Below are positions 5,876 through 61,246 of a stretch of 64,000 nucleotides of DNA, piece after piece. The stretch's first letter is position 1, and every line of letters starts with the position of its first letter. Source of the stretch: an uncultured Acidobacteriota bacterium (GTDB lineage Bacteria; Acidobacteriota; Vicinamibacteria; Vicinamibacterales; SCN-69-37); assembly GCA_963730485.1 (NCBI GenBank), contig CAVSRY010000011.1, positions 47,059-111,058 of the forward strand, written 5' to 3'. The notes beneath the pieces are model-generated. The model made no database searches, was not told the origin of the DNA, and saw only the letters and a program-made list of their open reading frames with translations. Position numbers and translations under genes: made by a program.

Positions 5876-6020
5876 TTGCGTATTTGTCACTGGTGATTGG
5901 CTATTGGTTATTGCATTGGTAATTGGTGATTCGTTATTGAGGATTCGAACCCCCGAACGTCAATAAGCCAATCACCAATCACCAATGCAATAGCCAATAA
6001 CCAATAACAAATAGCAAATG
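5876..6020. repeat. long AT-rich heptad-periodic hairpin (ATTGGTN / NACCAAT), arms about 60 nt
   Basis: attggct|attggtt|attgcat|tggtaat|tggtgat on the left, with caataagccaatcaccaatcaccaatgcaatagccaataaccaataac as its near reverse complement. Convergent junction. Confidence 0.85.
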
Positions 6021-6021
6021 T

Positions 6022-7493: not shown

Positions 7494-7532
7494 GGCCCTA
7501 AGCCTTAAGCCCTAAGCCCCAAGCCCAGAGCC
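7494..7532. repeat. single-arm heptamer array (CCTAAGC-type) filling the whole gltA / M28 gap
   Basis: cctaagc|cttaagc|cctaagc|cccaagc|ccagagc. No inverted partner is visible. Confidence 0.7.
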
Positions 7533-9086: not shown

Positions 9087-9153
9087 GGGTCTTGGGTCTT
9101 GAGTCTTGGGTCTTGGCGGCTGAGCCCAAGCCGCAGGACCCAAGTCCCAAGCC
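9087..9153. repeat. heptad-periodic inverted array (GGGTCTT / CCCAAGN) directly after the phoU stop
   Basis: gggtctt|gggtctt|gagtctt|gggtctt, spacer cggctga, then gcccaag|ccgcagg|acccaag|tcccaag. Confidence 0.8.
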
Positions 9154-9841: not shown

Positions 9842-10668
9842 CTAGCCGAACCGTCCGGTCACGTAGTCCTCAGTCAGCTTCTGCGCGGGGTTCGTGAACA
9901 TCTGGTCGGTCTGCCCGAATTCCACCAAGGTGCCCAGCCAGAAGAACGCCGTGGCGTCCGACACCCGCGCCGCCTGCTGCATGTTGTGCGTGACGATCAC
10001 GATCGTGTAGTTACGTTTCAGCTCGTAGATCAGCTCCTCGATGCGTTGCGTGGCCATCGGGTCCAGCGCCGAGGCCGGCTCGTCCATCAACAGAATCTCG
10101 GGCCGCACGGCAAGCGCCCGGGCGATGCACAGACGCTGCTGCTGTCCGCCTGACAAGGCCAGCGCCGAGTCGTGCAGCCGATCCTTCACTTCATCCCAGA
10201 GTGCCGCCGCCTGCAGGCTTGCTCGACCTGTTCGTCGAGGTCGCGGCGGCCCTTGAACATCCCGTTGATTCGGAGGCCGTAGGCGACGTTCTCGAAGATC
10301 GACTTCGGAAACGGGTTCGATTTCTGGAACACCATGCCCACGCGGCGGCGAAGCTGCACGACGTCGGTCCCCGGCGCGTAGATGTCGGCGCCGTCGATGC
10401 TGACCGAGCCCTCGACACGCGTGCCGGCGATGATGTCGTTCATGCGGTTGAGCGTTCGGAGAAACGTGCTCTTGCCGCAGCCGGACGGGCCGATGAACGC
10501 CGTGACGACGTTCGCCCGAATCTCGATCGAGATATCGGTCAGCGCCCGCTTCGGACCATAGAAGAAGTTCAGCTGCGTAACCCGCACCTTCACCGGCGCG
10601 GCTGGCAGCGGCGTGCGATCGGATGACGCCGACACCACGTTTGGACGCAGCGAAACCTCAGCCGCCAT
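9842..10668 (-). pseudogene. pstB: phosphate ABC transporter ATP-binding protein PstB, one frame break
   Basis: Walker [10 protein letters not shown], signature LSGGQQQRL, Walker B LLMDEP. The two ORFs join near 10200, where one extra A would restore ...[18 protein letters not shown]. Confidence 0.9.
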
Positions 10669-10777
10669 ACGAATTCACTCTATCCCGGAAGGCCGAGGTG
10701 GCTGGTTTCGGCTGTGTAAATTCAGCCCAGACCCCGCGCGCCACAAGCTTGTGAGGCGTTCGGGGTAAGCTCCCGTC

Positions 10778-11769: not shown

Positions 11770-12530
11770 ATCGATTCGGTTCTCACGACCGTCGCGGCTT
11801 CGGAGCCTTCGAGGAATTCGCCGACCTGGCGGCGCAGTTCTTCCTGGATGCTGTTGATCGATTTGCGGCCTTCGAGCACGCGGAAACCGAACTCGTCGGA
11901 CATCGCGGCGTATTCTTTGACGAGCTGCCGCTGATAGGCGCGGAAGCTGTCGTAGATGTCGTCGCCGGACTTGAGGTCCATGCCCGACTCCCAGTACGAC
12001 ATGCCGCCGGTCTGCAGCACGCGGCGGGCGAGGGCGTCGGCGTCAATCTTCAGGTAGAAGATGAGGTGCGGCGCGATCGCGAAGCCATAGAGCTGGCGGA
12101 TCCACTGGCTGTCCACGCCGCGCACGCCGGCGCGGGCGATGGCCGTGTAGATATACCGATCCGCGAGCACGATGAAGCCGGCTTTGAGCGCCGGGATGAT
12201 CTCCTTCTCGAGCCGGTCGGCGAAGTCGCACGCGTAGAGCAGCACGAACGTCAGCTTGTTGAGCGTGTTGCTCGACTTCGCCAGCTCGATCGTCGGCGCC
12301 ATCAGCGGCGATCGGGTCCATCCCGTCTCGATGACGCCGTAGCCGCGTACTTCGAGCCACTCACGGAGCAGTCGGATCTGCGTCGTCCGGCCGACGCCGT
12401 CCGTGCCTTCGATGGCGATGATGCGGCCCGGGTAGTCCGCGATCGGCGCGTAGGGGAGTCCGTGACCGTAGTACTGGCCCGGCGTGACGCCGCCGTGCGC
12501 GCCCAGGTCCTGTGCCGGCGAATCGCTCAT
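11766..12530 (-). CDS. thymidylate-kinase-family P-loop protein, Walker A Lys replaced by Arg
   Basis: IAIEGTDGVGRTTQ (R at the GK[ST] position), LADRYIYTA, and paralogy to the next gene. The internal start MSDSPAQ overlaps the upstream stop as ATGA. Confidence 0.6.
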   Translation of the reverse strand: MSDSPAQDLGAHGGVTPGQYYGHGLPYAPIADYPGRIIAIEGTDGVGRTTQIRLLREWLEVRGYGVIETGWTRSPLMAPTIELAKSSNTLNKLTFVLLYACDFADRLEKEIIPALKAGFIVLADRYIYTAIARAGVRGVDSQWIRQLYGFAIAPHLIFYLKIDADALARRVLQTGGMSYWESGMDLKSGDDIYDSFRAYQRQLVKEYAAMSDEFGFRVLEGRKSINSIQEELRRQVGEFLEGSEAATVVRTESI

Positions 12531-13202
12531 GTCGGGTTGCTCTCCAGGTGCGCGGTGACCATCTCGCGGAATTGCCGCTGCTGCTCGGTGATGCTGCGTC
12601 GAGCGTCGACAACCTCCAGCCCGTATTCGGGCACGATCCGGTCGTACTCCTCGAGCACCTTGGACTGGAAGATCTTGAAGCTCTCCGTGGCGTTGGCGCT
12701 CCATCCCATGTCCATGCCGGCCTCGTAGAACTTCATCTTGATGCGCCGGGCGAGGAGCCGATCCAGCGAGGTCTCGATCGGCACGCGGAAGTAGACCGCC
12801 AGGTTCGGACGGACGGCGAAGCTATACAGGTCGCGCACCCACTGGCGATCGACGCCGCGCGCGACATCGCGCGCAAACGCCGTGTACGCGTATCGATCGG
12901 CGAGCACAATCATGCCGGCCTTGAGCGGCGGGATGATGCTTATACAGCTGCCGGTCCGCGAAGTCGGTCGCGTGCAGCAGGCTGAACGTCATCGGCGTCA
13001 GCGCGTTCTTCTTCTTGCCGGCCTTGGTCGCCGCCTTCACGAGCGCTGACGAGTTCCATTCGGTGACGAACACCCGGTGGCCGTTGGCCGTCAGCCACTT
13101 CGACAGCAGGCTCAGCTGCGTCGTCTTTCCCGATCCGTCGATGCCTTCGACCACGAACAGGCGGCCGGGAAGGGTGTGCGGCGTGGCGAGGGTGTCGAGC
13201 AT
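12527..13202 (-). pseudogene. thymidylate-kinase-family P-loop protein (canonical Walker A), one frame break
   Basis: VVEGIDGSGKTTQ and LADRYAYTA. The two ORFs join near 12930 (..FADRQLYK / IIPPLKAGMIVLADRY). Confidence 0.6.
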
Positions 13203-13249
13203 GCTTCGTGGCGTCCTTTGTGGCCGGGGTCCTGCGACCACCGGCAATC

Positions 13250-14766
13250 TCACAGCGTATCTCGCACCCCAGCTCTTCGGCGAGGGCGGTCGCCTGGCGC
13301 TCGGCGGCCCAGAGCTCGAGCTCGGCGTCGCCTGAGGCCGTTGAGCCCGAGCGTCAGCCTCCTGCCGCTCCCGGTCACGCGGACGCCGGCCACCACCTGC
13401 GCGTGGCTCCGGTCCAGTCCCTCGGCAAGCCGGACGATCGCGCCGAGGACGCGAACCGCGCGCCGCTTGGGCTTCGAGAGCGACTTGTAGCCCTCGTGGG
13501 ACGCCTTCGGCGTCGCCTGACGATGGTACCGCGCCACGAGGCCGATGATGGTGACCTCGTCCGGCTCGAATCCGCGGAGTCCGCCATGCTTCACGAGGTA
13601 GTACGCGTGCTTATGGTGGCGCTCGTAGCTGATGTGCGTGCCGATGTCGTGAAGCAGGGCGCCGTCCTCGAGCCAGTCTCGCTCCTGCTGGCCCAGGCGG
13701 TGCCGCGTTTTCAGGCCGTCGAAGACGGCGAGCGCGAGCCGCGCGACCTGTTGCGCATGCGGCGCCAGGTAGTTGCACCGCTCGCCGAGCTCGATCACGC
13801 TGCGGCGCCGCACGTCCGGGTAGCGGTCGATGGTCTGGATGTGCCGGGCGTTGCGTGTGATGTAGTCGAGCACGAGCCCTTCACGCAGCGCGAAGTCACA
13901 GAGCGTAATCTCGTCAGCGCCGAGGCCATCGATGATCGCGTCGAGCAGCAAGGCGCCGGCGGGCGCGAGATCCGCGCGGCGCGGATCCATGTCCGGGATC
14001 TGCAGTCGCTCTGCGAGCGAGAGCGACGTCAGCCGGCGCGTGAGCCGCGACAGCGCCTTGGCGCTCACTCGCAGATTCCGCAGGTCGTCGGACGGCCGCT
14101 TGTCCGCGGCGAGCGCGCCGAGTGAGAGGATCGTCCCGGAGGTCCCGATCACGCGATCGATGCGGCGCCTTGAAATCTGCGCGAGGTACGGACCGACCTG
14201 ACGTGCGAACATGCCGCACAAGGCGACGGCGGTCGCGATCGGCGATCGGGTCGGTCGTGACGAAGCGCTCGGTCAGCCGGATCACGCCGAGCTTGAAGCT
14301 GCGCCCCGTGCGCAACCGCTCCGCCGTGCCGACCGTGATCTCGGTGCTGCCGCCGCCAATGTCCACGACGACGGCCGTGCGCTTCCCGATGTGGGCCGAG
14401 TACGCCGGCGGCCAGGTGGATCAGCCGCGCTTCCTCGGTTCCGGAGATCACCTGCACGCGCAAACCGACGGCGCGGCGGACCGCCGCGACGAAATCAGGG
14501 CCATTTCCGGCCTCGCGAACGGCGCTCGTGGCCGCGGCGATGATTTCGTCCACGCCGTGCGATGCGGCAATCCGCGTGAACTTTGATAGTGTCTGAAGCG
14601 CCGCCGACATGCTGGGCTCGGCCAGTTGGCGCCCGTCGAGGCCGCCAGTCCCGAGTCGAATCATGTCCTTTTCTCGATCGACGACCTCAAACGACAGGTC
14701 CGGCCGGATCCGGCAGACGATCATGTGGAGCGAGTTGGTGCCGATGTCGATGGCCGCGATGCGCAT
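13250..14766 (-). pseudogene. ppx: exopolyphosphatase / guanosine pentaphosphate phosphohydrolase (Ppx/GppA) with C-terminal HD region, frame-disrupted
   Basis: MRIAAIDIGTNSLHMIV, DIGGGSTEI, LLHDIG..HHKH. At least 3 shifts (near 14400, 14215 and 13330). Confidence 0.8.
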
Positions 14767-14786: not shown

Positions 14787-15809
14787 ATGCGAGGACGGAA
14801 GCTCGAACCGATGGGCCATGCTACCACGACGATCGCGGGCGGTTTGATCGCCGCACTGACGCGCCAGCACGATTCGCTCGCGCGCCGCTGGTCTGCCGCG
14901 CGTGCCGGCCACGTCAAGGGCGTGCATCGCGCGCGCGTGGCGTCGCGCCGCCTTCGCGAGGCCCTCGCGGTCATCGACGCGGCCGAGCCGAAGAGTCGCG
15001 CCGCGCGCCTCGCGCGTACCGTCAGGCGGATGACGCGAGCGCTGGGGCCGGTCCGCGAAATCGACGTCGCGCTGGTCGAGCTCGATCTCGCCGCCCGCCG
15101 GCACGGCTGGTCGCCCGAGCTCGCGGGAATCGTTCGCCGTCGGCTCGAGCGGGAGCGCGAGCGTCGCGCGAAGCGCATGGTCGCCAAGATTGCCAAACAG
15201 GATCGCGGCAGCGTTCGAGACGACATCCGCGAGCTGTCGAAGTGGATGACCGGTGCAGATGATCGATCCTCAGAGGCCGCACTGAGCGCCAGGATCGTGC
15301 GACGCGCCCGCGCAGTGCTGGCCGCGTCCGCCGCGGCGGGCACGATCTATGTGCCCAACCGGCTCCACGCGCTCCGCATCGCGATCAAGAAGCTGCGGTA
15401 CGCCATCGAGCTGCTGCCGCCGACGCCGGCGTTCGACGTGGCCGTCGCGCTGAAGTTGTTGAAGCGGGCGCAGCGTCGCTTCGGATCCCTTCAAGACATT
15501 CAGGTGCTCACCGCGGAAGTGCGGGCGATTGACACGGTGAAGCGGCGCCCAGCGGATCGTGCCGCGTTGTCTGCGGCGGCTGACGCCCTCGAGCGCGATT
15601 GCCGCGAGATCCACGCGAAGGCGCTCGCGCTCGTGCCGGATGTCGAGGCGTGCGCCCGGCTGATCCGGCGCGAGCTCGGTGTGCGCCGCCGGGGAAGCCG
15701 CCTCGCGATGGCCAAAGCAGAGCTCGACACGAAGGCCAGGGCTCTAAGGCTCAGGGCTCAGGGCTTGGGACTGATGCAGGCGCACGAGCGACCAACGTGC
15801 AGGCTCTAA
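14787..15809 (+). CDS. CHAD domain protein
   Basis: Helical, R-rich repeats (VHRARVASRRLREAL, LHALRIAIKKLRYAIELL). The last ~25 codons are translation of the left repeat arm, so the true C-terminus may be near 15735. Confidence 0.6.
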   Translation: MRGRKLEPMGHATTTIAGGLIAALTRQHDSLARRWSAARAGHVKGVHRARVASRRLREALAVIDAAEPKSRAARLARTVRRMTRALGPVREIDVALVELDLAARRHGWSPELAGIVRRRLERERERRAKRMVAKIAKQDRGSVRDDIRELSKWMTGADDRSSEAALSARIVRRARAVLAASAAAGTIYVPNRLHALRIAIKKLRYAIELLPPTPAFDVAVALKLLKRAQRRFGSLQDIQVLTAEVRAIDTVKRRPADRAALSAAADALERDCREIHAKALALVPDVEACARLIRRELGVRRRGSRLAMAKAELDTKARALRLRAQGLGLMQAHERPTCRL

Positions 15810-15860
15810 ACCCTAAGCCCTAAGCCCTAAGCCCTAAGCCCTAGCCGTGAGCCCTAAGCC
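15734..15860. repeat. heptad-periodic inverted array with a (CCCTAAG)n arm
   Basis: Left ggccagg|gctctaa|ggctcag|ggctcag|ggcttgg, 38-nt spacer, right ccctaag x4 |ccctagc|cgtgagc|cctaagc. Confidence 0.85.
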
Positions 15861-18845: not shown

Positions 18846-18935
18846 GGGTTCCCCGTTCCCGGTTCCACGTTCCCGGTTCTCGGGACCGCGAACGAAGAAC
18901 CTGGAACGGAGAACAGGGAACGCGGAACGGAGTCC
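18846..18935. repeat. heptad-periodic inverted array (NNGTTCC / NNGGAAC)
   Basis: gggttcc|ccgttcc|cggttcc|acgttcc|cggttct, spacer, then gaagaac|ctggaac|ggagaac|agggaac|gcggaac. Confidence 0.8.
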
Positions 18936-29780: not shown

Positions 29781-31078
29781 TTAACTGTTATCGCTCGACC
29801 TGGTCGCCGTCAGGATGCCGCCGCCACGAACGAAGAGGAACCATGCCGCCACGACGGCAAGAACGGCACCGTTGACGGCCATGACGCTCGATGCCGAGAA
29901 CCGGTCCGCCAATGCACCCGCCACCAGCCCGCCAATGGGGCCACCACCTCGTAACGCCACCATGTAGATGCTCACCACGCGGCCGCGGAGCGTCTCCGGC
30001 ACCGTCAACTGCACGAGCGAGAAACTGATCGAGAAGAGCGCCATGAAGAGGATGCCGCCGACGAACAGCAGCGCCAGGCTGAGCAGGAGCGACGTCGAGA
30101 GCGCGAACGCCGGCAATGAGGAGTCCGAGTCCGATCTGCACCACTCAGAAGCAGACGGCCCATGTGCTTCCTCGTATCGACCGTGCCCACGATCAGGGCG
30201 CCGAGAATCGCGCCGAGTCCCTGCGACGCCATCAACATGGACAGCCGGGATTCCGGCGTGCCGGTGCCCGTCAGCACCTCCGTCGCGAACGCCGGCAGCA
30301 TCGTCAGGATGGGCATCGCGAGAAACGTGCTGACGCCGACGAGGATCGTCAAGGTCAGCATGAGCCGGTTGTCGCGGACGTAGAAGAGGCCGCTCTGGAG
30401 CTCGACGCCGAGCGCCCGCCGATCGGGTGATGGCGTGTGGGGCGGCAAGTGAAGGGCCGTCAGGGCCACGACGACGATGAAGAACGACAACCCGTTGACC
30501 GCGAAACAGGCCGCGAGGCCAATCGTCGAAACGATGCCGACGCCCACGCCCGGGCCGAGTACGCGCGAGAGATTGAACTGCGTGGAGTTGAGGGCGATGG
30601 CGTTCGGCAGATCGCGTCGCGGCACGAGCGACGGGATCAGCGCCTGATACGCCGGGCCGCCGAACGCCTGTCCGCAGCCGGAGATGAACGACAGCGCGAA
30701 GATGAACCAGACGGTGATCGAGCCGTTCCAGACGAGCAGCGCCAGCATGAACGCCGAGAACGCCTGCACGTACTGCGACCCGGTCAACAGCCAGCGCCGA
30801 TCGTGCCGATCGGCGACGACCCCGCCGATCAGCATGAAGAGCAGGATCGGCAGCTGACTCAGGAAATCGTCGATGCCCAGGAAAAACTTCGACCCGGTCA
30901 GGTCATAGACCAGCAGGCTCTGGGCGAACTTCTGCATCCAGGTGCCGATCGTGGACCCGAGCGCCGCCAGCCAGAGGATCCGGAAGTTCCGGTGGGTCAA
31001 CGCGCCAGCGACCCGTGCGATCCAGGGCCGCGGCGCGTCAGGCGCGGCGGCTGGGTCGGTGGCGGGGGAGGAAGACAC
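29781..31078 (-). pseudogene. MFS transporter, one frame break
   Basis: About 12 TM segments. FRILWLAALGSTIGTWMQ, GGVVADRHDRR. Join near 30130. Confidence 0.8.
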
Positions 31079-31097
31079 GGGCTTTGGATCTTATAGC

Positions 31098-31164
31098 GGG
31101 CTCTGAGACTTGGGTCTTGGGGCTTGGGACGGGTGTTGCGGCCTCAAGCCTCAAGGCTCAGGCC
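31098..31164. repeat. heptad-periodic inverted array (GGGNCTT / CTCAAGC) in the MFS / imuA divergent region
   Basis: gggctctgagacttgggtcttggggcttggg, spacer, then gcctcaagcctcaaggctcaggcc. Confidence 0.75.
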
Positions 31165-31241: not shown

Positions 31242-31958
31242 ATGAAATCCGCCGCCCGTACCCGCCCCGTCAGCCGAGAACGGCTGGAAGCGCTGCTCGA
31301 TGCCCGCAAATTGGGGGGCGTTCTGCGGCCGGTCTGGGCACTGGGAGGGACGAACGTCCACGTCACCTCCACCGGCGTGCCCCAGCTCGACCAGACACTC
31401 GGCGGGGGATGGAGACAGGGTGAAATCTCGGAGCTTGTCGGGGGGCGATCGTCAGGCAAGACGAGCGTCCTCCTGGCGAGCCTGACGGCTGCGACGGCTG
31501 ACGGTGGCGTGGCGGCCATCGTCGACGCGGTGGATCGGCTCGATCCTCGGTCGCTTGATGGCGCGGGCGGGGATCTCAGCCGCGTGCTCTGGGTGCGCGG
31601 CGCCGCCATCACGATCGAGATGGCCCGGCCGGCGCTGATCGAGGAGGTCGTCTCGCGAGCCGTCCGTGCGTTCGATCTGATTATTCGCGCGGGTGGGTTT
31701 TCCCTGGTCGCGCTCGATCTGTCGGATGTGCCGTCCCGGTACGTGCGCGCGCTGCCATGGGCCACCTGGAAGCGGCTGGCGTACGCGAATGAAGGCCGGC
31801 CTACGGTCGGTTTGATCGTCGGTCAGGAGCCGATGGGCCGCAGTGCCCGCGGTGTGTCGATCGCGCTCGCTTCGTCTCCCGTGTGGACGGGGACGAGCGA
31901 TCAGAGCCGCAGGTTCGCCGGATTCGAGAACCGCACGCGATGTTCTGCTGTCTGCTGA
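31242..31958 (+). CDS. imuA: ImuA (SulA/RecA-like) protein of the imuA-imuB-dnaE2 cassette
   Basis: TGVPQLDQTLGGGWRQGEISELVGGRSSGKTSVLLASL. Position directly upstream of imuB-dnaE2. Confidence 0.7.
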   Translation: MKSAARTRPVSRERLEALLDARKLGGVLRPVWALGGTNVHVTSTGVPQLDQTLGGGWRQGEISELVGGRSSGKTSVLLASLTAATADGGVAAIVDAVDRLDPRSLDGAGGDLSRVLWVRGAAITIEMARPALIEEVVSRAVRAFDLIIRAGGFSLVALDLSDVPSRYVRALPWATWKRLAYANEGRPTVGLIVGQEPMGRSARGVSIALASSPVWTGTSDQSRRFAGFENRTRCSAVC

Positions 31959-32114
31959 CCTCGCGTGCCGACGTGGCGCTGGCTGTCGCGCGCGCGTGCT
32001 CCCCACGCGTCCGCGTCTACGGCCCTGGTGCGGTTTTCGACGTCTCTGGGTGCTCGCGGACGATCGGGACACCAGCGACCATTGCGAGTGAAGTGCTTTC
32101 GTTGGCGAAACGAT

Positions 32115-32215
32115 GGTCCGAGGGTCGCGAGGGTCCGAAGGTCCGAAGGTCCGGTCCAGGGTTCCAGGTCCTCGAACCCTCGGACCCTCGGACCCTCGGA
32201 CCCCTCGGACCCTCC
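32115..32215. repeat. inverted array with 8-nt unit (GGTCCGAR / YTCGGACC) inside imuB
   Basis: ggtccgag|ggtcgcgag|ggtccgaa|ggtccgaa|ggtccgg, spacer, then tcctcgaa|ccctcgga x3|cccctcgga. Confidence 0.85.
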
Positions 32216-32344
32216 CCGTGTCGCTGTTGCCCCGACCGTCACGATGGCCTGGCTGCTGGCTCATGCGCGTCCGGGCATGACGGTCGCGGACGCGGCGTTG
32301 TTATCGCGGCTGCCCGTGGGGTGGCTTGGGGCATTGAGTGATCT

Positions 32345-32440
32345 GAGAGTTCGAGGAGTTCGAAGGGGTCGAGGAGTTCGAAACGTTCAGGACACCCTCG
32401 ACCCTTCGAACTCGACCCTCGAACTCTCGACCCCTCGAAC
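32345..32440. repeat. inverted array with 8-9-nt unit (GAGGAGTTC / GAACTCGAC-type) inside imuB
   Basis: gagagttc|gaggagttc|gaaggggtc|gaggagttc|gaaacgttc, spacer aggaca, then ccctcgacccttcgaactcgaccctcgaactctcgacccctcgaac. Confidence 0.85.
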
Positions 32441-33086
32441 GAGATCGCCGAAGCCCTGGCGATCTTTGAACGCTGGGGGCTTCGCACGCTTGGTGATGTG
32501 GCGGCGCTTCCGCGCGGTGATGTTCTCGCGCGGTTGGGACCACTCGGCCGGCGTTTGCATCAAGCCGCGTGCGGAGAAGACGCGGCGCCGTTCGTGCCGA
32601 TGGACGAGACGCCGGGGTTCGTCGATCGCCTGGAGCTCGAGTGGCCGATCGAAGGACTCGAGCCACTCGCCTTCGTGCTGGCGCGATCGTGCGAGCGGTT
32701 GTCGATGGCGCTCCAGCGCGCCGATCGCGGTGCCGTCGCGGTCCGTACCCAATTGCGGCTCGTGACACGCGAGACGCACGAGCGGACGCTCAACCTGCCG
32801 GCGCCGATGGCCGACGCCCGGATCCTGCGAACGCTCATCCTGCTCGATCTCGAATCACATCCTCCGCCCGCGGCGATCGACATCGTCACGATCGAGCTCG
32901 ACGTCAGTCCCGGTCCGATCGTGCAGGGATCGTTGATTCTGCCGACGTTGCCAACGTCCGAGGAGCTCGCGACGCTCGTGGCGCGATTGACGGCGCTCGT
33001 GGGCGCTTCGCGCGTGGGGGCGCCGATCCTCGTCGATACCCACGATGCGCGGGCGATCGGGATGGAGACATTTGGCGTGCAACTCT

Positions 33087-33184
33087 GGGAGGGCAGAGGG
33101 CAAAGGGCAGAGGGCAAAGGAGAGGAAAAAGTCCGGACACTCTGGCCTCTGCCTTTGCCCTTTGCCCTCTGCCCTTTGCCCTCC
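33087..33184. repeat. heptad-periodic inverted array (CARAGGG / CCCTYTG) inside imuB
   Basis: gggaggg|cagaggg|caaaggg|cagaggg|caaagga, 20-nt spacer, then cctctgc|ctttgcc|ctttgcc|ctctgcc|ctttgcc. Confidence 0.9.
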
Positions 33185-33457
33185 GAAGGCTGCGTTTGCC
33201 GATCGCGGCGCGCGTTGAGGTTGAGCGCCGCGTGCCGGTGAGCGTGCGGCCTTCGGCCCGCGGATTGTCCGGCGGTCGTGTGGTGGCCTCGTGCCGGTCC
33301 CTGGCGCTCGTCCGGCGGATGGTGGACGTTCAACCGCGCCGAATGGGATCGCGACGAGTGGGATGTGGAGCTGTCGACGGGAGACGTGTACCGGATTGCG
33401 CGCAATCGTTCGACGGAGCAGTGGGAGGTCGAGGGAATCATCGATTGAAGTGCACGT

Positions 33458-33615
33458 GCATTGATGATTTGAAATTTGAAATTGATGATTCATTGGTGAT
33501 CGGAGGATTGATGATTTCGAATCGACGGATCGAGATCGCTCATTCCACCGATCGGCAATCATCAATTCTTCAATCATCGATGGATCATCAATTTCAAATT
33601 TCAAATCATCAATGC
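33458..33615. repeat. long AT-rich heptad-periodic hairpin between imuB and dnaE2, arms about 75 nt
   Basis: gcattgatgatttgaaatttgaaattgatgat... and ...atcatcaatttcaaatttcaaatcatcaatgc. The outer ~32 nt pair perfectly and the inner part has diverged. Confidence 0.9.
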
Positions 33616-33843
33616 AGCGTCTTTGTCCATGTACATCGAGCTCCACACTTCCTCGGCCTTCTCCTTTCTCGACGGCGCGTCGCTGCCGGGGACGCTCATC
33701 GAGCGTGCGGCCGAGCTGAACTATCCCGCGCTGGCGCTGCTCGATCGCGACGGGCTGTACGGTGCGCCGCAGTTCTATCGCGCCGCCAAAGCCGCCGGCA
33801 TCAAAGCGATTGTCGGTGCGGAACTGACGATTGGGGATCTGCG

Positions 33844-33938
33844 CCACGCGGGGTCAGTCCCAGCTCCGTAAGCCTCAAGCCCCACGCGACCCACGCGGGG
33901 TCAGTCCCACTGCGTGAGCGGGGACAGACCCCGCGTGG
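33844..33938. repeat. REP/MITE-like palindromic element (one partial plus one complete copy) inside dnaE2
   Basis: ccacgcggggtcagtccca at 33844. Complete copy ccacgcggggtcagtcccactgcgtgagcggggacagaccccgcgtgg at 33891-33938, with 12-bp perfect terminal inverted repeats. Confidence 0.85.
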
Positions 33939-35385
33939 CTGGACCCTGCCCGTGCTCGTCTCGTCGGCGGAGGGGTATCGCCAGCTCTGCCGGATCATCA
34001 CGCGCGCGAAACTCCGGTCGCCAAAGGGCGAGTCGCGCGTCACGCTCGACGATCTGGCAGGACAGACGAGCGGCCTCGTCGCGCTCGTTGGCCGCGAAGC
34101 GCTCCACGCCGAGCGTCACGGCGTCGGCGGACTGATCGATCGACTCGTGGGAACCTTCGGGCGGCAGCAGGTCTGGATCGAGCTGCAGCGTCACCTCGGG
34201 CGTGCCGATGCGCCGGAGCTCTCGTCGCTCATCGATCTCGGCGCCGCGTTTCGTGTGCCGCTCATGGCGTCCAACGGCGTCCGGTTTGCCGCTCCGGATG
34301 CGCGTCCGCTCTATGACGTGCTCACCAGTATCCGGCACAAGACGACGTTGAACAGGGCAGGCCGGTTGTTGTCGGCCAACGCCGAGCGTTATCTGAAGCC
34401 GCCGGAGCTCATGGCCCGCATGTTCGCCGACGTGCCGCAGGCGCTCGCCGGCACCGAGGCCCTTGCGGAGCGGCTCGAGTTCACGCTCGCCAATCTCGGC
34501 TACCGGTTTCCGGAGTATCCGGTCCCGGCGGGCGAGACCGAGTCGTCTTTCTTGCGACGGCTGACGCACGTCGGCGCGCGCGATCGCTATCGGCCGCTTC
34601 ACGACCGCGCCCGCGCGCAAATCGCGCGCGAGCTGGATCTCATCGAACGCCTCCAGCTCTCCGGCTACTTCCTCATCGTCTGGGACATCGTCAATTTCTG
34701 CCGGCAGCAGCGCATCCTGGTGCAGGGGCGCGGGTCGGCTGCCAACAGCGCCGTGTGCTACGCGCTTGGGATCACGGCCGTCGATCCCGTGGGCATGGGT
34801 CTGCTCTTCGAGCGGTTCCTGTCGGAAGAGCGCGGCGAGTGGCCGGACATCGACCTCGATCTGCCGAGCGGCGACCAGCGCGAGCGCGTCATTCAGTACA
34901 TGTACGAGCGCTACGGCACGCTGGGCTCGGCGATGACCGCCAACGTGATCACGTATCGGGGGCGCAGCGCGGCGCGCGAAGTCGGCAAGGTTCTGGAGCT
35001 TCCCGAGGCCGAGGTCGATCAGCTCGCGCGACTGATGAGCCAGTTCGAGTTCGTCGATCCCGAGGAAACGTTCGCGCGGAATCTCCGCGAGTCCGGCCTC
35101 GACCCGGACGATCCGCGTTACCGGCTCTTCGGGAAGTTGTGGCGCGAGGTCCAGGATCTGCCGCGGCATCTCGGCCAGCATTCAGGCGGCATGGTGGTGT
35201 GCCAGGGCCGGCTCGACGAGATCGTGCCGCTCGAGCCCGCGTCGATGCCCGGGCGTGTCGTCGTGCAGTGGGACAAGGACGATTGCGCGGACCTCGGCAT
35301 CATCAAGGTGGATCTGCTGGGGCTCGGCATGATGGCCGCGCTCGAGGACGCGATCGCGATCATCAATGCACCGTATGAGGACATG

Positions 35386-35428
35386 ACAACCGGGTGTCGT
35401 CACCTTCGAGCTCAGGACACCCGGTTTC
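35386..35428. repeat. small hairpin element, GAAACCGGGTGTC...GACACCCGGTTTC family, inside dnaE2
   Basis: aaccgggtgtc, 17-nt spacer, gacacccggtt (11-bp perfect inverted repeat). It coincides with a frame change. Confidence 0.75.
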
Positions 35429-36223
35429 TTCACCGATCGATCTCGCGCACTTACCCCCGGACGACCCCGCCGTCTACCGGATGCTGCAGTCGGCTGACAC
35501 GGTTGGCGTGTTCCAGGTGGAGTCGCGCGCGCAGATGGCGACGCTGCCGCGGCTCAAGCCAAAGTGTTTCTACGACCTCGTGGTCGAGGTGGCCATCATT
35601 CGCCCCGGGCCCATCGTGGGCAACATGGTGCATCCGTATCTCGCCCGGCGCCGTGGCGATCAGCCGGTGACCTACGCGCATCCGCTGCTCGAGCCGGTGC
35701 TCGCGCAGAACGCTGGGCGTGCCGTTGTTCCAGGAGCAGCTGCTGCGGATGGCGATGGTCGTCGCCGGGTTCTCGGGAGGCGAGGCCGAGGAACTGCGCC
35801 GGGCCATGGGCTTCAAGCGATCGGTGAAGCGAATGCAGCAGATCGAGCAGCGGCTGCGCGACGGCATGGCCCGCAACGGGATTCACGGCACGGCGGCCGA
35901 CGACATCGTGCGGTCGATCACGTCGTTCGCGTTGTATGGCTTTCCCGAGTCGCACGCCGCCAGCTTCGCGCTCATCGTCTACGCGAGCGCGTATCTGAAG
36001 GCGCACTACCCGGCGGCCTTCTACACGGCGCTCCTCAACAACCAGCCGATGGGGTTCTATCACCCGGCTACGTTGGTCAAGGACGCGCAGCGGCGCGGCG
36101 TCCGGTTCACGCCGGTGGACGTCCAGGTGTCGTCGTGGAACTGCCGCATCGAGGAGAACGGCGCGATTCGGCTCGGGCTTCGGATCGTGAAGGGATTGAG
36201 AGCTGACGCGGGACAGCATATTG

Positions 36224-36310
36224 AAAAGGCAGAAGGCAAAAGGCAAAAGGCAGAAGGAGAGGAAGAAACAGGGAAGAACGGGGAACGGGGAACGGGGAAC
36301 GGGGAACGGA
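36224..36310. repeat. single-arm heptamer array morphing from AAGGCAR to GGGAACG, inside dnaE2
   Basis: aaggcag|aaggcaa|aaggcaa|aaggcag|aaggaga|ggaagaa|acaggga|agaacgg|ggaacgg x4. It coincides with a frame change. Confidence 0.85.
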
Positions 36311-36483
36311 TGTGCGTTTCACGTCCTTCGATGATCTGGTCGCGCGTGCCGGGCTTCGACAGGACGAAGTTCGCGTGCTGGCCGAGTGTGGCGCGCTGGC
36401 GGCGTTCGGTGGGGATCGCCGGACGGCGCTCTGGCAAGCGGAGCGGGCCGGCCGCCCGGCCGGCCCACTGCTCGTCGATAGCG

Positions 36484-36529
36484 ATGAAACCGGCTGTCCT
36501 CACGCCGAAGGAACGACACCCGGTTTCAT
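36484..36529. repeat. second copy of the GAAACCGG-type small hairpin, inside dnaE2
   Basis: atgaaaccggctgtc, 16-nt spacer, gacacccggtttcat. It shares GACACCCGGTTTC with 35416-35428. Confidence 0.7.
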
Positions 36530-36530
36530 G

Positions 36531-36568
36531 CCCCAGGCCCCAAGTCCCAAGCCTCAAGCCCCAAGCCC
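36531..36568. repeat. single-arm heptamer array (CCCCAAG-type) read in frame within dnaE2
   Basis: ccccagg|ccccaag|tcccaag|cctcaag|ccccaag, translated as QAPSPKPQAPSP. Confidence 0.75.
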
Positions 36569-37005
36569 GCTTCCTCCCATGTCCCTGGCCGAGCGGGTGC
36601 AGTCGGACTACGACCGGACGGGGCTGACGATTGGGCCGCACCCGATGGCCATCGTCCGCGCGTCGCTGGCGACGCGCGGCATTCAGCGCGCCAGCGATCT
36701 CGCCCGCGGACGTCCAGGCCGGCGCGTCCGCGTGGCGGGATCGGTGATCACGCGCCAGCGGCCCGGTACCGCCAAGGGATTTGTGTTCCTGTCACTCGAA
36801 GACGAGACCGGCATCGCCAACGCGATCATCACGCCCGACGTGTTCGCCATGTACAAGCGGACGATCGTCGATGAGCCGTACTTGATCATCGAAGGCACCC
36901 TGCAGAACCAGGACGGGGCAGTTTCCGTCAAGGCCGATCGCGTCGATGTGCTCGATGGCGTCGGGCCGGAAGTCGAGTCGCACGACTTTCATTGAGGCTA
37001 CTCAT

Positions 37006-40305: not shown

Positions 40306-40408
40306 GCGAACGAGGAACGAGGAACGGGGAACGAGGAACGGGGAACGGGGAACGGGGAACGATAGAATCGCTCTCTCAATGCCCGTTCCTCGTTCCTCTC
40401 TCGTTCGC
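40306..40408. repeat. asymmetric heptad-periodic inverted array (RGGAACG / CGTTCCY)
   Basis: Eight left units gcgaacg|aggaacg|aggaacg|gggaacg|aggaacg|gggaacg x3, 19-nt spacer, then a short right arm cccgttcctcgttcctctctcgttcgc. Confidence 0.85.
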
Positions 40409-40790: not shown

Positions 40791-41458
40791 CGCCGGTCGC
40801 TCACGTTCTCTACCTGCACGGGTTCGCGTCCTCGCCGGCGTCGTCGAAGGCGCGGCGGTTCGAGGAGGAGCTGGCGGTGCACGGCGTCGGATTCTCCTGT
40901 CCGGATTTCAACCAGCCGGCGTTCGAGACGCTCACCGTGACGCGGATGCTCGCGGACACGCGCCGGGCCCTCGAAGCCGCACGCGGCCGGCCTGTTGCGG
41001 TCATCGGTTCCAGCCTGGGCGCGTTCGTCGCCGTGCACGCGGCCGAGGCGGCATGGGGACGTGACATCGACCGGCTGATTCTGCTCGCCCCGGCGCTCGA
41101 TTTCGGCGGCAACCGTCTGCGGCAACTGGGTGACCGCGGCCTGGACGAGTGGCGCACGTCCGGCCGTCTCGAGGTCTTTCACTACGGCGACAATCTCACG
41201 CGGCACGTCGGGTTCGAGCTCTACGAAGACGCAGCGCGCTTCGACGCGTTCCGTGTGCAGCGAGTCCTTCCCACGCTCGTCTACCAGGGACGGCAGGACG
41301 AATCCGTCAGCGCCGACATGGTCGCCGGCTGGGCTGAGGAGCGGAGGCACGTGACACTCCGTCTTGTTGACGATGGACACCAGCTCACGGCTTCGATGGA
41401 CGAGATCTGGAAGGAGGCGGAGGCGTTTCTGGGCTCCGCGCGACAAGTTCAGAAGTGA
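40754..41458 (+). CDS. alpha/beta hydrolase (YqiA-like esterase family)
   Basis: VLYLHGFASSPASSKA and GSSLGAF (GxSxG), in a 234-aa ORF. Confidence 0.65.
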   Translation: MPLPAGLPDDAVTPVAHVLYLHGFASSPASSKARRFEEELAVHGVGFSCPDFNQPAFETLTVTRMLADTRRALEAARGRPVAVIGSSLGAFVAVHAAEAAWGRDIDRLILLAPALDFGGNRLRQLGDRGLDEWRTSGRLEVFHYGDNLTRHVGFELYEDAARFDAFRVQRVLPTLVYQGRQDESVSADMVAGWAEERRHVTLRLVDDGHQLTASMDEIWKEAEAFLGSARQVQK

Positions 41459-41534
41459 GAAGCCAGAAGTGAGAAGAAACTGACGCGGCAGGCGCCCAGC
41501 AGCTTCTCACTTCTGGCTTCTCACTTCTAACTTG
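41447..41534. repeat. near-perfect heptad-periodic hairpin (GAAGTGA / TCACTTC) at a convergent junction
   Basis: gttcaga|agtgaga|agccaga|agtgaga|agaaac, 22-nt spacer, then cttctcacttctggcttctcacttctaac. The left arm overlaps the hydrolase stop. Confidence 0.9.
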
Positions 41535-44789: not shown

Positions 44790-44878
44790 GAAGTTAGAAG
44801 GCAGAACTTCGAAGTCAGAAATGTATGTTCAAACATTCATGTTTCTGACTTCTTACTTCTAAGTTCGAACTTCTTATC
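44790..44878. repeat. heptad-periodic inverted array (GAAGTYA family) ending 10 nt before the radical SAM start codon
   Basis: gaagtta|gaaggca|gaacttc|gaagtca|gaaatg, AT-rich centre, then gtttctgacttcttacttctaagttcgaacttcttatc. Confidence 0.75.
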
Positions 44879-47060: not shown

Positions 47061-47096
47061 GGTTCAACGTTCCGGGTTAAGGGTTCCGGGTTCTGG
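47061..47096. repeat. single-arm heptamer array (GGTTCNR)
   Basis: ggttcaa|cgttccg|ggttaag|ggttccg|ggttctg. Confidence 0.55.
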
Positions 47097-47115
47097 CCAT
47101 TGGGCTAGACTCCGA

Positions 47116-47135
47116 GGTTACAACCGGTTACAACC
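47116..47135. promoter_or_regulatory. perfect tandem 10-mer GGTTACAACC x2 (contains AACCGGTT palindrome)
   Basis: ggttacaaccggttacaacc, upstream of the methyltransferase gene. Confidence 0.3.
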
Positions 47136-47248
47136 GGGTCGTGAGAGGGCGATGACATGAAGCATCGCGCCGACGCGCACGCCTTCTATCCGGCCGCTGG
47201 ATGGGCGCTCACCGGGCGGAGGTTCGGCAAGCCCCTCGGCAGAGCCGA

Positions 47249-47733
47249 ATGATGCTTGTGTTCGCTCGCGCAGCCACGTATCTCGGCGCTCTTCGTCGGC
47301 CTCTTCCTCATCTTTCTACCGGATCGGATCTTGTCATCGACAGGGATCGTTCGACCCGCGGAATTCGGATTGTGGCAGGTCGCCGGCATGTTCCTGGGAG
47401 CCTTTGGTGCGCTGCTCGCGCTCGCGTGTATCCTCACCTTCGTGTTCGCCGGCAAGGGCACTCCTGCGCCGTTCGATCCGCCTCGCCGGCTGGTGGTTCG
47501 AGGTCCCTATCGGTTCGTCCGCAACCCGATGTATCTCGGTGCCGGCCTCGCGCTGACAGGCGCCGCGCTGTTTTATCAATCGATTCCGATGGCCGGCTAT
47601 GCTGGAGCGTTCCTCCTAATCACGCACGTTTTTCGTCATCCTGTACGAGGAGCCCACGCTGCGGCGGACCTTTGAGGACAGACTATGTCGGCGTATTGTC
47701 AGGCAGACCGGTCGATGGTGGCCGAAGCGATAA
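47249..47733 (+). pseudogene. isoprenylcysteine carboxyl / phospholipid methyltransferase family membrane protein, frame-disrupted
   Basis: LVVRGPYRFVRNPMYLG, then (other frame) ILYEEPTLRRTF. Shifts near 47292 and 47630. Confidence 0.65.
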
Positions 47734-47749
47734 GAACGACCAGGTGACG

Positions 47750-48651
47750 ATGAAGACCTATCTGCTCTCACTTCCTGAGCGACTGGTCCGAGCCACGCTG
47801 GGGGTCGCTGCCGGCGTCGCGCGTGAAGTCGGAGAGGTCGCCCTTCCCAAAGGTATTCGCAGCAGCCAGTTGTACCAGAACCTCGTGGACGCGTCGCTCC
47901 GGTTTCTGATCGAGCAGGTGGGAGGCGCGGAGGGCGTTTACCAGGCCGACGAAGCGTTGACGGATCACTTTCTCGCCAGGCGCGCGGCGGGCAATGCCGT
48001 GGAAATGCTCGGCATCGTCGCGTTTCGCGCGTCGCCCGTCTGGGTGCTCGCGGCACTGGCGGACCTGTGCGGCATGGGGCGGCACCTGATTCCGGAAATG
48101 GCCGACGCGCTGAAGGCCCAGGGCCTGCTGGAGAAAGACACCCATTTCACTAGCGTCGATCAAATGTTGGACGGTCTGGAACGGACCTCGTCTCGGCTTG
48201 CCACAACGATCAATACGCCGCCGCTGGACGTCGCGGGACTCCGGAAGGAATGGGACGCCATTCGAACGGAAGCCCGATCAATGCAGCCCGCGAGTCTTCC
48301 CTCGCGGGAAACGATCGCGCAACTGTGGACCGAGCTCAAGACAGAATCCGCCCGACAGAACAGGTCGGTCTTTGAGACATCGTCAATGATCGCCGTATCT
48401 GCGGTGCGAGCTCTTCCGGACGGCGCACGGTGGGTCTCGGCGTCTGCCCGGATAGGCGCGACGCGTGCCGGCCACATTCTTCGCCACGGCGCTTCTGGAT
48501 CACTACAGGCAGACATTGGGAGAGATACAGCAAGGCGGGTACGCGGCCTATGCCGGCCGGCAGCTTCGCCCCTATATTCGGGCCGCGGTCGACCAGTTCT
48601 CGTCCAAGCGTCGTACACTCACCGAGCGTGTGCTTGAAAAGCTTCGGTTGA
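47750..48651 (+). pseudogene. hypothetical protein; frame break near 48480, 3' end uncertain
   Basis: MKTYLLSLPERLVRATLGVAAGV...continuing as FFATALLDHYRQTLGEIQQGGYAAYAGRQLRPYIRAAVDQF. I recognise no family. Confidence 0.35.
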
Positions 48652-49288
48652 TCGCGATCCTGTCGCTCGGGTTCTCGGTCGCAGCGCACGGCCACTCAGG
48701 ACACGGCAGGCGCTTGCATTCCCGCGAGCGAACGTGCCGGGCGCGCCTTCGGGTGCTTCATCCTGGCGGCGCAGCCACTGGGTCAGCTCGAGCGCGCGGC
48801 GACCTTCTGGCATCTGGAGACATTCCCGACTCGTGCGGCCGCCGAGAAGGCAAAGAGTGCTCGCGGCGCTGGTCGTCGAAGCGTTCGACAAGGTGTGGCT
48901 GCTCTCGATCGCCGACGCCGGCTGGCGGACGGCGGGGCGACCCACGTCGCGGAAATCGGCCCGCTCGCGATAAAGCCCGGCACCGCGTACACGGCCCAGT
49001 TCATGGAAGCCGTCTTCCGTCCGGGCATGAAGTCGCGGGTGCATCGTCACGCCGGTCCCGGAGGCCTGGTACACGATCACCGGCGAAACCTGTCTCGAAA
49101 CCCCTGAGGGCACCATGGTTGGCCGCGCGGGCGGCGCTCATGTCGTCGTTCCACAGGGACCGCCGATGGAACTGACTGCGACTGGCTCGGAGACGCGACG
49201 ATCGTTGGTGCTCATCCTTCACGAGTCCGCACAACCGCATACGAGTCCGGCGCCGGACTGGACGCCCAAGGGACTCTGCAAGGCGTGA
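48648..49288 (+). pseudogene. cupin-like small protein, reconstructed across several frames
   Basis: Fragments TFWHLETFPTRAAAEKAKS, VVEAFDKVWLLSIADAGW, VAEIGPLAIKPGTAYTAQFMEAVFRPGMKSRVHRHAGP, WYTITGETCLETPEGTMVGRAGGAHVVVPQGPPMEL. Confidence 0.3.
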
Positions 49289-49292
49289 GGTC

Positions 49293-50153
49293 ATGAAAGC
49301 GTCCCACCGTCTACGAGGGTTTCTGGTTTCAATCGTCGTATTGATGCTGCCTGGGGCGGCCGAGATGCGACAGCAGACCGGCAAGGCTTCGACCGAGAGC
49401 CGCGCTGACAATGAAGCGTTCCTGTCGAATGGTCGAATCGTGACCGACGCACCAGCGGACGGAAGATCATCCTGGCGGGCGAGTCTTGAGGACGGACTCC
49501 GGAAGCACGACGCGTCGGTCGAGACGGCAGACGGAAGCGGTCCCACCAGGCGGGACCACAGGTTCAACGTCGCCGCTTACGAGCTGGACAAGCTCCTTGT
49601 GCTCGACCTGGTCCCGCCATCGGTCCAGCGACTCGTGGGAGGTCGGCCGGCCTCCCTCACTTGGTGGGTCGACGGGTTTGCCATGAACGAGCTGGATCGG
49701 AGACGAAAAGCCATCGACCCTCCCGACCGAGACACCTGGAGCAGGCAAGTGGACGCTGTGCGTGTCTTCGACGAGTTGATCTCGAACACCTACCGGGATA
49801 CAAGTCCCGGGCTTTACCTGAATACAGTTTGGGACAACTTGCTGATTACGAAGGACTGGACCATCTGGATTATCGATCACACCGCGGCATTCCGGACCCG
49901 TATGAGACTGGAGGATCCGGGGAGCTTGATGCGGTGTCCACGGACGGTCCTCGCCAGATTGCGGGAGCTGAACCGAGAGCAGTTCCAGCGAACACTGGGC
50001 CGATATCTTTCCTCGCAACAACTGGACGCGTTGGACGTTCGGCGGGCACTACTCGTGAAACACTTCGGCGACCGGATTGCGAGCGACGGCGAAGTCACGG
50101 TACTGTTACGACCTCCGACCGAGAGAGTGACTTCGTCCCTGTCCTGGTCCTAG
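49293..50153 (+). CDS. secreted hypothetical protein with weak PI3/PI4-kinase-like catalytic-loop resemblance
   Basis: Signal-like LRGFLVSIVVLMLPGAA. NVAAYELDKLLVLDLVPPS, FDELISNTYRD, WDNLLITKDWTIWIIDHTAAF. Confidence 0.35.
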   Translation: MKASHRLRGFLVSIVVLMLPGAAEMRQQTGKASTESRADNEAFLSNGRIVTDAPADGRSSWRASLEDGLRKHDASVETADGSGPTRRDHRFNVAAYELDKLLVLDLVPPSVQRLVGGRPASLTWWVDGFAMNELDRRRKAIDPPDRDTWSRQVDAVRVFDELISNTYRDTSPGLYLNTVWDNLLITKDWTIWIIDHTAAFRTRMRLEDPGSLMRCPRTVLARLRELNREQFQRTLGRYLSSQQLDALDVRRALLVKHFGDRIASDGEVTVLLRPPTERVTSSLSWS

Positions 50154-50275
50154 ACTGTCCTGCGCGCCCACCGCTTGCGGGTCGGAGCGGGTGCTGCCGA
50201 ATCCCGGCGGCGATCCCTCATGCTCGCGTCTTCCACCGGAAGCGAGGACGCGATCGTACGAGGCGACGCTCAGTC

Positions 50276-50644
50276 GTGCCAGCGGAGATTATTCCGGTTC
50301 GTACCGACGTGCGTGTACCTGACATAGGACTCAGAGAGTTTCACAACTGGTTCGCAATTGGTATCAGCGGAAATTACCTGGCCACAGATGACTACGCGTC
50401 TCCCACGCTTTTCGAGCGCTTCTCCACGAATGCGTACGTCGCAATCGACTTCCTCATTGGAACGACAACGTTCACGATCGTGGAGCACTCGGGTGTCTCG
50501 GTCCCGTTTGCCGGCTCATTTGAGTTCTGCTCGACGCGACCGGGGGCCGCGCCGAATTTCTGCGATCGGTTTGCTCCTGACGTTCTGATCGAACACGAAC
50601 ACTGTTTTGCGGAACGTCACCGCCTGATCCTGGTGCGCCCATAG
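50276..50644 (+). CDS. hypothetical protein (GTG start guessed)
   Basis: Open frame in a visibly less GC-rich stretch. No motif recognised. Confidence 0.25.
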   Translation: MPAEIIPVRTDVRVPDIGLREFHNWFAIGISGNYLATDDYASPTLFERFSTNAYVAIDFLIGTTTFTIVEHSGVSVPFAGSFEFCSTRPGAAPNFCDRFAPDVLIEHEHCFAERHRLILVRP

Positions 50645-61212: not shown

Positions 61213-61246
61213 GGGACGCTTTTACAATCAACGTGAAAAGCGTCCC
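61213..61246. promoter_or_regulatory. 11-bp perfect inverted repeat GGGACGCTTTT..AAAAGCGTCCC in a divergent promoter region
   Basis: gggacgcttttac aatcaac gtgaaaagcgtccc, between the TIM-barrel and Gfo/Idh/MocA genes. Confidence 0.4.

Follow-up and report, generated by a model that had tools for sequence, protein, structure and literature searches.

The stretch of DNA analyzed here, 64,000 nucleotides (nt) long and referred to as the window, comes from an uncultured Acidobacteriota bacterium of the order Vicinamibacterales (assembly GCA_963730485.1, contig CAVSRY010000011.1, forward strand positions 47,059 to 111,058). It has a G+C content of 65.8% and carries, at 31242-36995, a three-gene mutasome cassette composed of an imuA-like gene, imuB, and dnaE2, the last two of which contain arrays of short tandem repeats (Table 1). 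ImuB is the inactive Y-family polymerase of the imuA-imuB-dnaE2 mutasome, and the second gene is assigned to it by homology to Y-family DNA polymerases and by gene order (RecA-fold imuA/imuA′, imuB, dnaE2), which is the same in related loci. Its homologues belong to the Vicinamibacterales (Acidobacteriota); E values of the 120 best ones listed range between 2e-201 and 2e-123, and the Joint Genome Institute (JGI) names many of them "protein ImuB". The product also has weak but specific NCBIfam matches to models of DNA polymerase IV (E 1e-7, well short of the equivalog cut-offs), and a sequence search found no solved ImuB structure. The imuA-like gene is recognized by Pfam RecA (E 2.6e-10, a weak match) and by NCBIfam ImuA_translesion (5.3e-9, under the curated cut-off), and dnaE2 has the Pfam domains PHP, DNA_pol3_alpha, DNA_pol3_finger, and HHH_6 together with an OB-fold. 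The LexA box GTTC-N7-GTTC is absent upstream of the imuA-like gene and occurs at chance level over the whole window. For comparison, 25 loci of relatives were fetched from species-representative genomes (given as L numbers, proteins as P numbers); over the cassette, the DNA of the window is 91.9% identical to L001 and 86.8% identical to L025.

Table 1. Genes, repeat arrays, and frame breaks of the window, numbered from its first nucleotide. ORF, open reading frame; z, z-score of RNA folding.
Feature	Position	Strand	Remarks
imuA-like gene (RecA-fold), first gene of the cassette	31242-31958	+	3′ end overlaps the start of imuB
imuB	31940-33448	+	five segments in frames 2/0/2/1/2; 502-aa ORF after four 1-nt edits
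dnaE2	33623-36995	+	five pieces, four frame changes (tblastn frames)
imuB array 1	32112-32214	+	octamer GGTCCGAR x5, loop, CCTCGGAC x5.5
imuB array 2	32345-32440	+	GAGTTCGAG/GGGGTCGAG units (8-9-nt class) plus complement
imuB array 3	33087-33184	+	GAGGGCA/AAGGGCA x4.6, loop, CCTTTGC/CTCTGCC x4.4 (heptamer GGGCARA)
Extra C relative to L001, imuB	33290	+	fourth imuB frame change, no array; deletion restores GGRVVACAGPWRSSGGWW as in P0001, P0004, P0005
Hairpin insert in dnaE2 PHP domain	33843-33939	+	z -7.1; non-heptamer
Degenerate variable insert, dnaE2	35373-35432	+	L001 and L025 have AACCCTCG octamer arrays there; frame 1 to 0
Extra A relative to L001 and L025, dnaE2	35707	+	no array; splits conserved DNA_pol3_finger (23-110 and 110-166)
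Two adjoining G-rich heptamer arrays, dnaE2, (AAAAGGC)n and (GAACGGG)n	36224-36309	+	frame changes here
One-armed C-rich heptamer array (GCCCCAA)n, dnaE2	36530-36568	+	in frame
Heptamer hairpin array, divergent promoter region upstream of the imuA-like gene	31109-31164	+
AT-rich near-perfect 160-nt hairpin, imuB stop to dnaE2 start	33457-33616	+	78-nt arms, 83% complementary
(CGTTCCC)n array just 3′ of the dnaE2 stop codon	37006-37074	+	without complementary arm
Further intergenic spacers with arrays	2124-2180, 2879-2945, 3750-3865, 5881-6025, 7495-7526, 9087-9116, 15732-15860, 18847-18932, 40308-40398, 41450-41533, 44790-44874, 47069-47137
M28 peptidase	6591-7476		Peptidase_M28 split between frames
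pstB-like ABC ATPase	9845-10674		ABC_tran split into profile positions 1-88 and 87-136
Thymidylate-kinase-like gene	12530-13610		Thymidylate_kin split between frames
MFS transporter	29784-31090		MFS_3 split between frames
GFO/IDH/MocA oxidoreductase	61237-62724		GFO_IDH_MocA split between frames

Each of the three arrays within imuB is about 100 nt long and is built from 7-9-nt tandem units, a short loop, and then the inverted complement. Array 1 is located in the loop between the helix ending in ASEVLSLA and the strand PRVAVAPT, array 2 in a variable loop ahead of the EIAEALAIFERWGLRTLGD motif, and array 3 in the linker joining the polymerase-like core to the C-terminal domain. Folded as RNA, array 1 reaches -73.1 kcal/mol (z-score -6.2), array 2 reaches -54.9 kcal/mol (-4.7), and array 3 reaches -80.4 kcal/mol (-10.4), each scored against 200 dinucleotide shuffles; because none of the 200 shuffles of any array folds as well as the native sequence, these hairpins lie far beyond chance. 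The reading frame (position mod 3) changes from 2 to 0 across array 1, from 0 to 2 across array 2, and from 2 to 1 across array 3, and all three arrays are free of stop codons both in the frame that enters them and in the frame that leaves them. A preliminary description made from the sequence alone had reported three inverted repeat arrays of about 100 nt, a frame that differs across each one, and a further break near 33290. Its coordinates were all confirmed, the folding beyond shuffles agrees with it, and the additional break proved to be a 1-nt one that returns the frame from 1 to 2.

All segments of the two interrupted genes bear the mark of protein-level constraint. Compared with L001 and each read in its own frame, the segments of imuB and dnaE2 differ 25:20:149 times at codon positions 1:2:3 over ~1650 codons; the third-position bias is present in every segment of both genes, the same pattern is seen against L025, and the imuA-like gene shows a ratio of 1:2:13 against L001. 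Downstream of frameshifts that were both real and old, this bias would have disappeared. An old pseudogene is thereby rejected, and the first option raised in the preliminary description, a dead gene colonized by repeats, is contradicted. Four 1-nt edits (one base removed from array 1, one base added to each of arrays 2 and 3, and the C at 33290 removed) are sufficient to produce an imuB ORF of 502 residues, which aligns with P0001 over its full length at 77% identity and regains the conserved motif VVACAGPWRSSGGWW.

Alignment to ImuB orthologues, which the preliminary description had proposed as a check, revealed comparable native linkers at all three sites, an outcome that this description had listed among its refuting results. 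In the closest full-length homologues (P0001, P0002, and P0003; 67-75% identical), low-complexity inserts encoded by arrays are present at each of the three positions, whereas more distant ImuB homologues have short loops there. In the protein alignment (A1), the sites appear as regions of variable length (columns 67-107, 155-250, and 465-515), again with short loops in the array-free orthologues. At the DNA level, arrays lie within single ORFs of 1446 nt in L026 (which encodes P0003) and 1485 nt in L027 (which encodes P0002), both taken as short-read assemblies, as judged from their record names. Some of these arrays are two-armed hairpins, and others have decayed to one arm and persist as in-frame linkers (site 2 of L026; sites 1 and 3 of L027). 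Homologous in-frame arrays occupy site 1 in L026, P0001, and P0003, and the unit family of array 3 recurs at site 3 in P0002, P0005, P0008, P0009, and P0021. The left arm of array 2 is identical to that of L001, where the array is in frame and 28 nt (4 x 7) longer. An AlphaFold2 model of P0003 built with A1 (mean predicted local distance difference test score, pLDDT, 71) predicts coil at sites 1 and 3, where pLDDT is under 50-56 (under 50 at site 3) and the elements on either side are predicted with confidence; the picture at site 2 is less clear. In-frame indels inside arrays distinguish the >90% identical pairs P0042/P0134 and P0018/P0180. Length differences within the 90% protein clusters were also considered as a sign of array changes and were rejected, as most of them reflect alternative start codons.

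The distribution of frame changes was set against sequencing technology, with loci from outside the Microflora Danica (MFD) catalogue treated as the non-Nanopore comparison set. Frame changes in dnaE2 are absent from 19 of 19 non-MFD loci, but at least one is present in six of seven MFD loci, and the window has four. Likewise, imuB is in a single frame in 16 of 18 non-MFD loci, the two exceptions being a scaffold gap filled with N and a GC-rich insert in L011 that is not an array. The MFD metagenome-assembled genomes (MAGs) are Nanopore-only, assembled with Flye and given one round of Medaka polishing without short reads, and their authors looked for Nanopore-associated errors (PMC12313526). 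The two closest relatives of the window, L001 among the MFD loci, derive from such assemblies, and the window most likely does so too. Far from the arrays, single Pfam domains are split across overlapping frames in five unrelated genes (Table 1). Single-base indels are frequent across the window, and annotation of it that relies on ORFs is unreliable. A frame-plot of G+C at third codon positions gave 18 candidate junctions, an upper bound only since true gene boundaries are mixed in, and five were verified by the split Pfam domains.

We consider it highly probable that the imuB arrays are real and serve as in-frame linkers, that the frame breaks are indel errors of the assembly, and that the gene is an ORF of ~500 codons. 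The arrays are genuine genomic inserts of a lineage-wide class of 7-9-nt tandem repeats, usually accompanied by an inverted copy and forming ~100-nt hairpins. In the Vicinamibacterales such arrays fill intergenic spacers and, unusually, also a few fixed sites within imuB and dnaE2 that correspond to loops or linkers. To judge from the integrity of the ORFs, the intragenic arrays would be transcribed and then translated in frame into linker peptides of low complexity that are probably disordered, and selection would keep those array lengths that preserve the frame and those units without in-frame stop codons. The frame changes of the window and the break at 33290 would be single-base indel errors of an error-prone, most likely Nanopore-only assembly, gathering where hairpins, tandem units, and array lengths that vary between strains may defeat basecalling and polishing. 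The sequences suggest that the linker peptides are made, and we infer that the hairpins have no essential role. In-frame linkers with frames obscured by sequence errors were the second option of the preliminary description, which is supported by the native linkers of the orthologues, the Nanopore-linked breaks, the frameshifts in other genes, and the four-edit repair.

Some observations weigh against this explanation. Six of the seven intragenic array sites of the window are broken, far more than expected from a background of roughly 0.1-0.5 indels per kb; both L001 and L025 likewise have breaks at arrays 1 and 3; and the truncated ImuB fragments P0141, P0122, and P0138 end at array sites on long contigs. 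The excess of breaks at arrays fits an error hot spot and fits slippage of 7- or 8-nt units equally well. We attribute it to poor basecalling of inverted repeats, to the tandem units, and to polishing over strain-mixed lengths; Spealman and colleagues, in Nucleic Acids Research in 2020, reportedly observed that Nanopore accuracy falls in inverted repeats. Literature searches on Vicinamibacter repeats and on Nanopore errors at inverted repeats did not return the primary paper on either subject.

Were the frame changes real, slippage of the repeat units or small indels would have inactivated imuB and dnaE2 in this strain, either through very recent pseudogenization or in an OFF state of the SOS mutasome that is phase-variable and can be reversed; in either form we regard this as unlikely. 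Such inactivation would account for the concentration of changes at arrays, seen in the window and in both L001 and L025. It would also fit unit lengths that are not divisible by three, so that each unit gained or lost displaces the frame by one, the array lengths that differ between >90% identical proteins, the 28 nt by which array 2 falls short of its in-frame counterpart in L001, and the homologues P0141 and P0122 that are truncated at arrays. Such inactivation is difficult to reconcile with the intact dnaE2 of every non-Nanopore locus, where imuB has only the two exceptions given above, and, given the third-position bias downstream of the breaks, it would have to have happened very recently and in each of three lineages separately. 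The breaks are moreover found at non-repeat sites inside conserved motifs (the C at 33290 and the A at 35707) and in unrelated housekeeping genes, which points to a general error process. Removal or skipping of the arrays during expression, whether by RNA processing with religation, translational bypassing, or programmed frameshifting, is very unlikely in our estimation. It would draw on the high stability of the hairpins (-55 to -80 kcal/mol) and on the fact that all segments are protein-constrained though they lie in different frames, but it would also leave array length modulo 3 and stop content free to vary, and neither is so in the non-Nanopore orthologues, where the arrays are in frame and stop-free. 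Within imuB and dnaE2 of 20 non-MFD loci, Tandem Repeats Finder (TRF) detected 43 arrays of period 7 or 8, and, the two imuB exceptions aside, none of them conflicts with the uninterrupted reading frames of these genes. The frequency of stop trinucleotides per nt is 0.0089 for the sense strand of intragenic arrays, 0.0153 for the antisense strand, and 0.0295 for non-genic arrays, a 3.3-fold depletion of the intragenic sense strand relative to non-genic arrays.

The one-armed arrays of L026 and L027 also argue against removal, as they are unable to form a hairpin and persist in frame, and so do the breaks at 33290 and 35707, which have no hairpin at all. At the starts of the imuB arrays no stop codon follows a possible take-off site, and the upstream frames stay open for 150 to >300 nt past the arrays; bypassing of the T4 gene 60 type was rejected for want of such stop codons. 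Rfam gave no match in the window at the gathering threshold, and at E <= 1 only generic look-alikes of miRNA hairpins well below threshold; an intron, ribozyme, or other known RNA was rejected on this ground. The preliminary description had itself ranked removal at the RNA or translation level last among its options, and this ordering is borne out, as features of a bypass or intron were not found and the in-frame, stop-depleted arrays of the orthologues contradict such removal. That the arrays are themselves assembly artefacts is hardly credible. Foldback chimeras are a recognized artefact of long reads, and no computed result points to them here. This explanation is refuted by independent non-Nanopore contigs and MAGs (L012, L026, L027, and others), which carry homologous arrays at these sites, and by the presence of such arrays in many predicted proteins of JGI and European Nucleotide Archive metagenomes.

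The arrays of imuB belong to a class that extends across the window, where similar arrays number about 20 and TRF places period-7 arrays at about 20 positions. Outside imuB and dnaE2, all of them lie in gaps between coding segments, and about 12 further intergenic spacers contain arrays or hairpins (Table 1). Nearly all intergenic spacers longer than ~100 nt hold a heptamer tandem array, mostly with an inverted copy; several are located between convergent genes, in the manner of bidirectional terminators, and others upstream of genes. Recurrent unit families in the window are GGGTCTT/GCCCTAA, GAAGTSA, GAACGGG, GGGCARA, and ATTGGTT. Reading the array sequences by eye revealed no conserved core of the kind seen in miniature inverted-repeat transposable elements, no shared loop, and no flanking or target-site duplication.

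Array density, calculated over the same loci, is 0.62 per kb in imuB and 0.49 in dnaE2, compared with 0.048 in other coding sequence and 0.52 in intergenic DNA. The two mutagenesis genes thus have about ten times the density of other genes, equal to that of intergenic DNA, and all seven intragenic arrays of the window are found in them. Array sites are fixed across the order and the units are lineage-specific: GGGGATC is used throughout L019, AGGCCGA in L012 and L023, ACTGCCT in L022, and GCACCCA in L002 and L004. In L019, GGGGATC occurs at at least six imuB, dnaE2, and intergenic places, so that one genome uses one family at several sites, unlike the lineage of the window, which has a different unit at each site. 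The sharing of units within genomes like L019 suggests homogenization or a pool of active units particular to each genome.

Identity between the window and L001 is 78-85% for the arrays and only 62% for the intergenic hairpin, compared with 91.9% for the whole cassette region, and every array or hairpin copy compared between the two keeps 42-75 paired positions. Judged from these alignments, the arms of the arrays co-evolve, remaining complementary despite their divergence. Candidate explanations for the enrichment, the fixed sites, and the co-evolving arms are relaxed selection on genes that are rarely expressed and have permissive linkers, arm-to-arm conversion, and regulatory hairpins within the ORFs. 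A regulatory device for the SOS mutasome, which these traits and the lineage-specific units could mark, in the form of a slippage-driven ON/OFF switch or of attenuator hairpins acting through RNase III or ribosome stalling, seems to us decidedly improbable; if the switch existed, the frame breaks in long-read MAGs would be real OFF states, and if the attenuator did, the in-ORF hairpins would hold mutasome expression down. Why two mutagenesis genes should carry arrays at intergenic density, with almost none in their neighbors, is the question these data raise. If the arrays are in-frame linkers, the SOS mutasome proteins of an abundant soil order would tolerate several translated inserts of ~30 residues whose hairpins reach -50 to -100 kcal/mol. 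For annotation, hairpin repeats of short units would be hot spots of frame-breaking consensus errors in Nanopore-only soil MAGs, where intact genes may look like pseudogenes or candidates for recoding.

Similar arrays and hairpins interrupt dnaE2 as well. The hairpin in the PHP domain contains a direct repeat of CACGCGGGGTCAGTCCCA and has a homologue in L001 (7934-8032), and the more distant L012, L019, and L022 carry heptamer hairpin arrays at the same protein position. The two adjoining G-rich arrays of dnaE2 do not form a hairpin (-5.7 kcal/mol).

Hairpins and arrays also flank the genes of the cassette. The spacer between imuB and dnaE2 is filled by a near-perfect hairpin of 160-190 nt in the window, in L001 (7526-7703), and in L025 (7494-7728). 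The copy in the window, made of AT-rich ATTGATG/ATTTGAA units, folds to -101.9 kcal/mol with 75 pairs and shares only 62% identity with those of L001 and L025, which are of the GATTGCG type. This points either to a concerted change of the two arms or to replacement of the element. Just beyond dnaE2, L001 (11079-11160) has the complementary (GAACGGG)n arm that the (CGTTCCC)n array of the window lacks. The 43 nt absent here represent either a real deletion of one arm or the collapse of a hairpin during assembly.

Dispersed heptameric simple-sequence repeats are the nearest described class. An excess of heptamer repeats in bacteria is credited to Mrazek et al. (2007) in the account given in PMC4679880. 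With the G-rich GGGNATC-type heptamers found in Xanthomonas and Nostoc (Rehm et al. 2015, PMC4692102) and with the heptamers among the cyanobacterial short tandemly repeated repetitive (STRR) sequences, the arrays share dispersed, mostly intergenic 7-nt tandem units, units of the G3N4 form (GGGCARA, GGGTCTT, and GAACGGG here; GGGGATC in L019), and some inverted pairs. They differ in that nearly all arrays here are two-armed hairpins and that arrays 1 and 2, with 8-9-nt units and no G-tracts, fit only loosely. Tandem 7-nt units in many, mainly intergenic copies are present as in that class; under-representation in coding sequence holds for other genes but not for imuB and dnaE2. A search with the array-3 peptide retrieved only short, spurious ORFs without domains over similar arrays (Nostoc, Blastocatellia, and others) and revealed no other host protein family, a search that does not exclude such families.

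The nearest functional parallel is provided by the Rickettsia palindromic elements (RPEs), which Ogata and colleagues reportedly described in 2000 as in-frame inserts of ~100 nt in coding genes, translated as additional surface segments with the host protein kept. By analogy with RPEs, a palindromic insert lies here in frame within a gene that appears functional, given the intact non-Nanopore ORFs and the constrained flanks. RPEs form sequence families with a conserved consensus, whereas the arrays share architecture but not sequence: units and loops vary, internal tandem units change with site and lineage, and no conserved core is visible. The phylum is also different, and the hosts here are concentrated in two genes.

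Further systems share individual traits with the arrays. Inverted pairs, long hairpins, intergenic location, and many copies per genome are also features of repetitive extragenic palindromes and their paired form (REP/REPIN; PMC3116915). REPINs have a conserved core of 20-40 nt and depend on a REP-associated tyrosine transposase (RAYT); the sequences here show no such core, no search for a RAYT was made, and arms made of short tandem units are not a REPIN feature. Contingency loci likewise contain tandem units that are not multiples of three inside an ORF, where slippage would switch the frame. Here, accurate assemblies have only in-frame arrays, the arrays lie in mid-protein loops and not near the N-terminus, and frame-changing states are found almost only in Nanopore-only MAGs (in assemblies, not reads); frame-toggling polymorphism was not found, and the frame-shift aspect is most likely an assembly artefact. 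The Borg tandem repeats, as outlined in PMC9879509, are similarly fast-evolving and in frame and add low-complexity, disordered segments, but they are direct tandem repeats in that outline, whereas the arrays here are inverted pairs of 7-9-nt units and the frame rotates through each array.

The array-3 search also brought up P0194 (Nostoc linckia), P0197 (a cyanobacterium), P0236 (Blastocatellia), and P0234 (Limnobaculum), whose entries as "hypothetical proteins" are translations of (GGGCARA)n/(TTTGCCC)n; these are spurious gene calls over the same type of repeat in distant phyla. Elsewhere in the window, the region 47201-50644 contains overlapping plus-strand ORFs in shifting frames with no Pfam match, weak periodicity of third-position GC, and a slightly lower G+C content (0.61-0.64); it may represent a single large gene, unannotated and disrupted by indels, or else DNA of atypical composition or origin.

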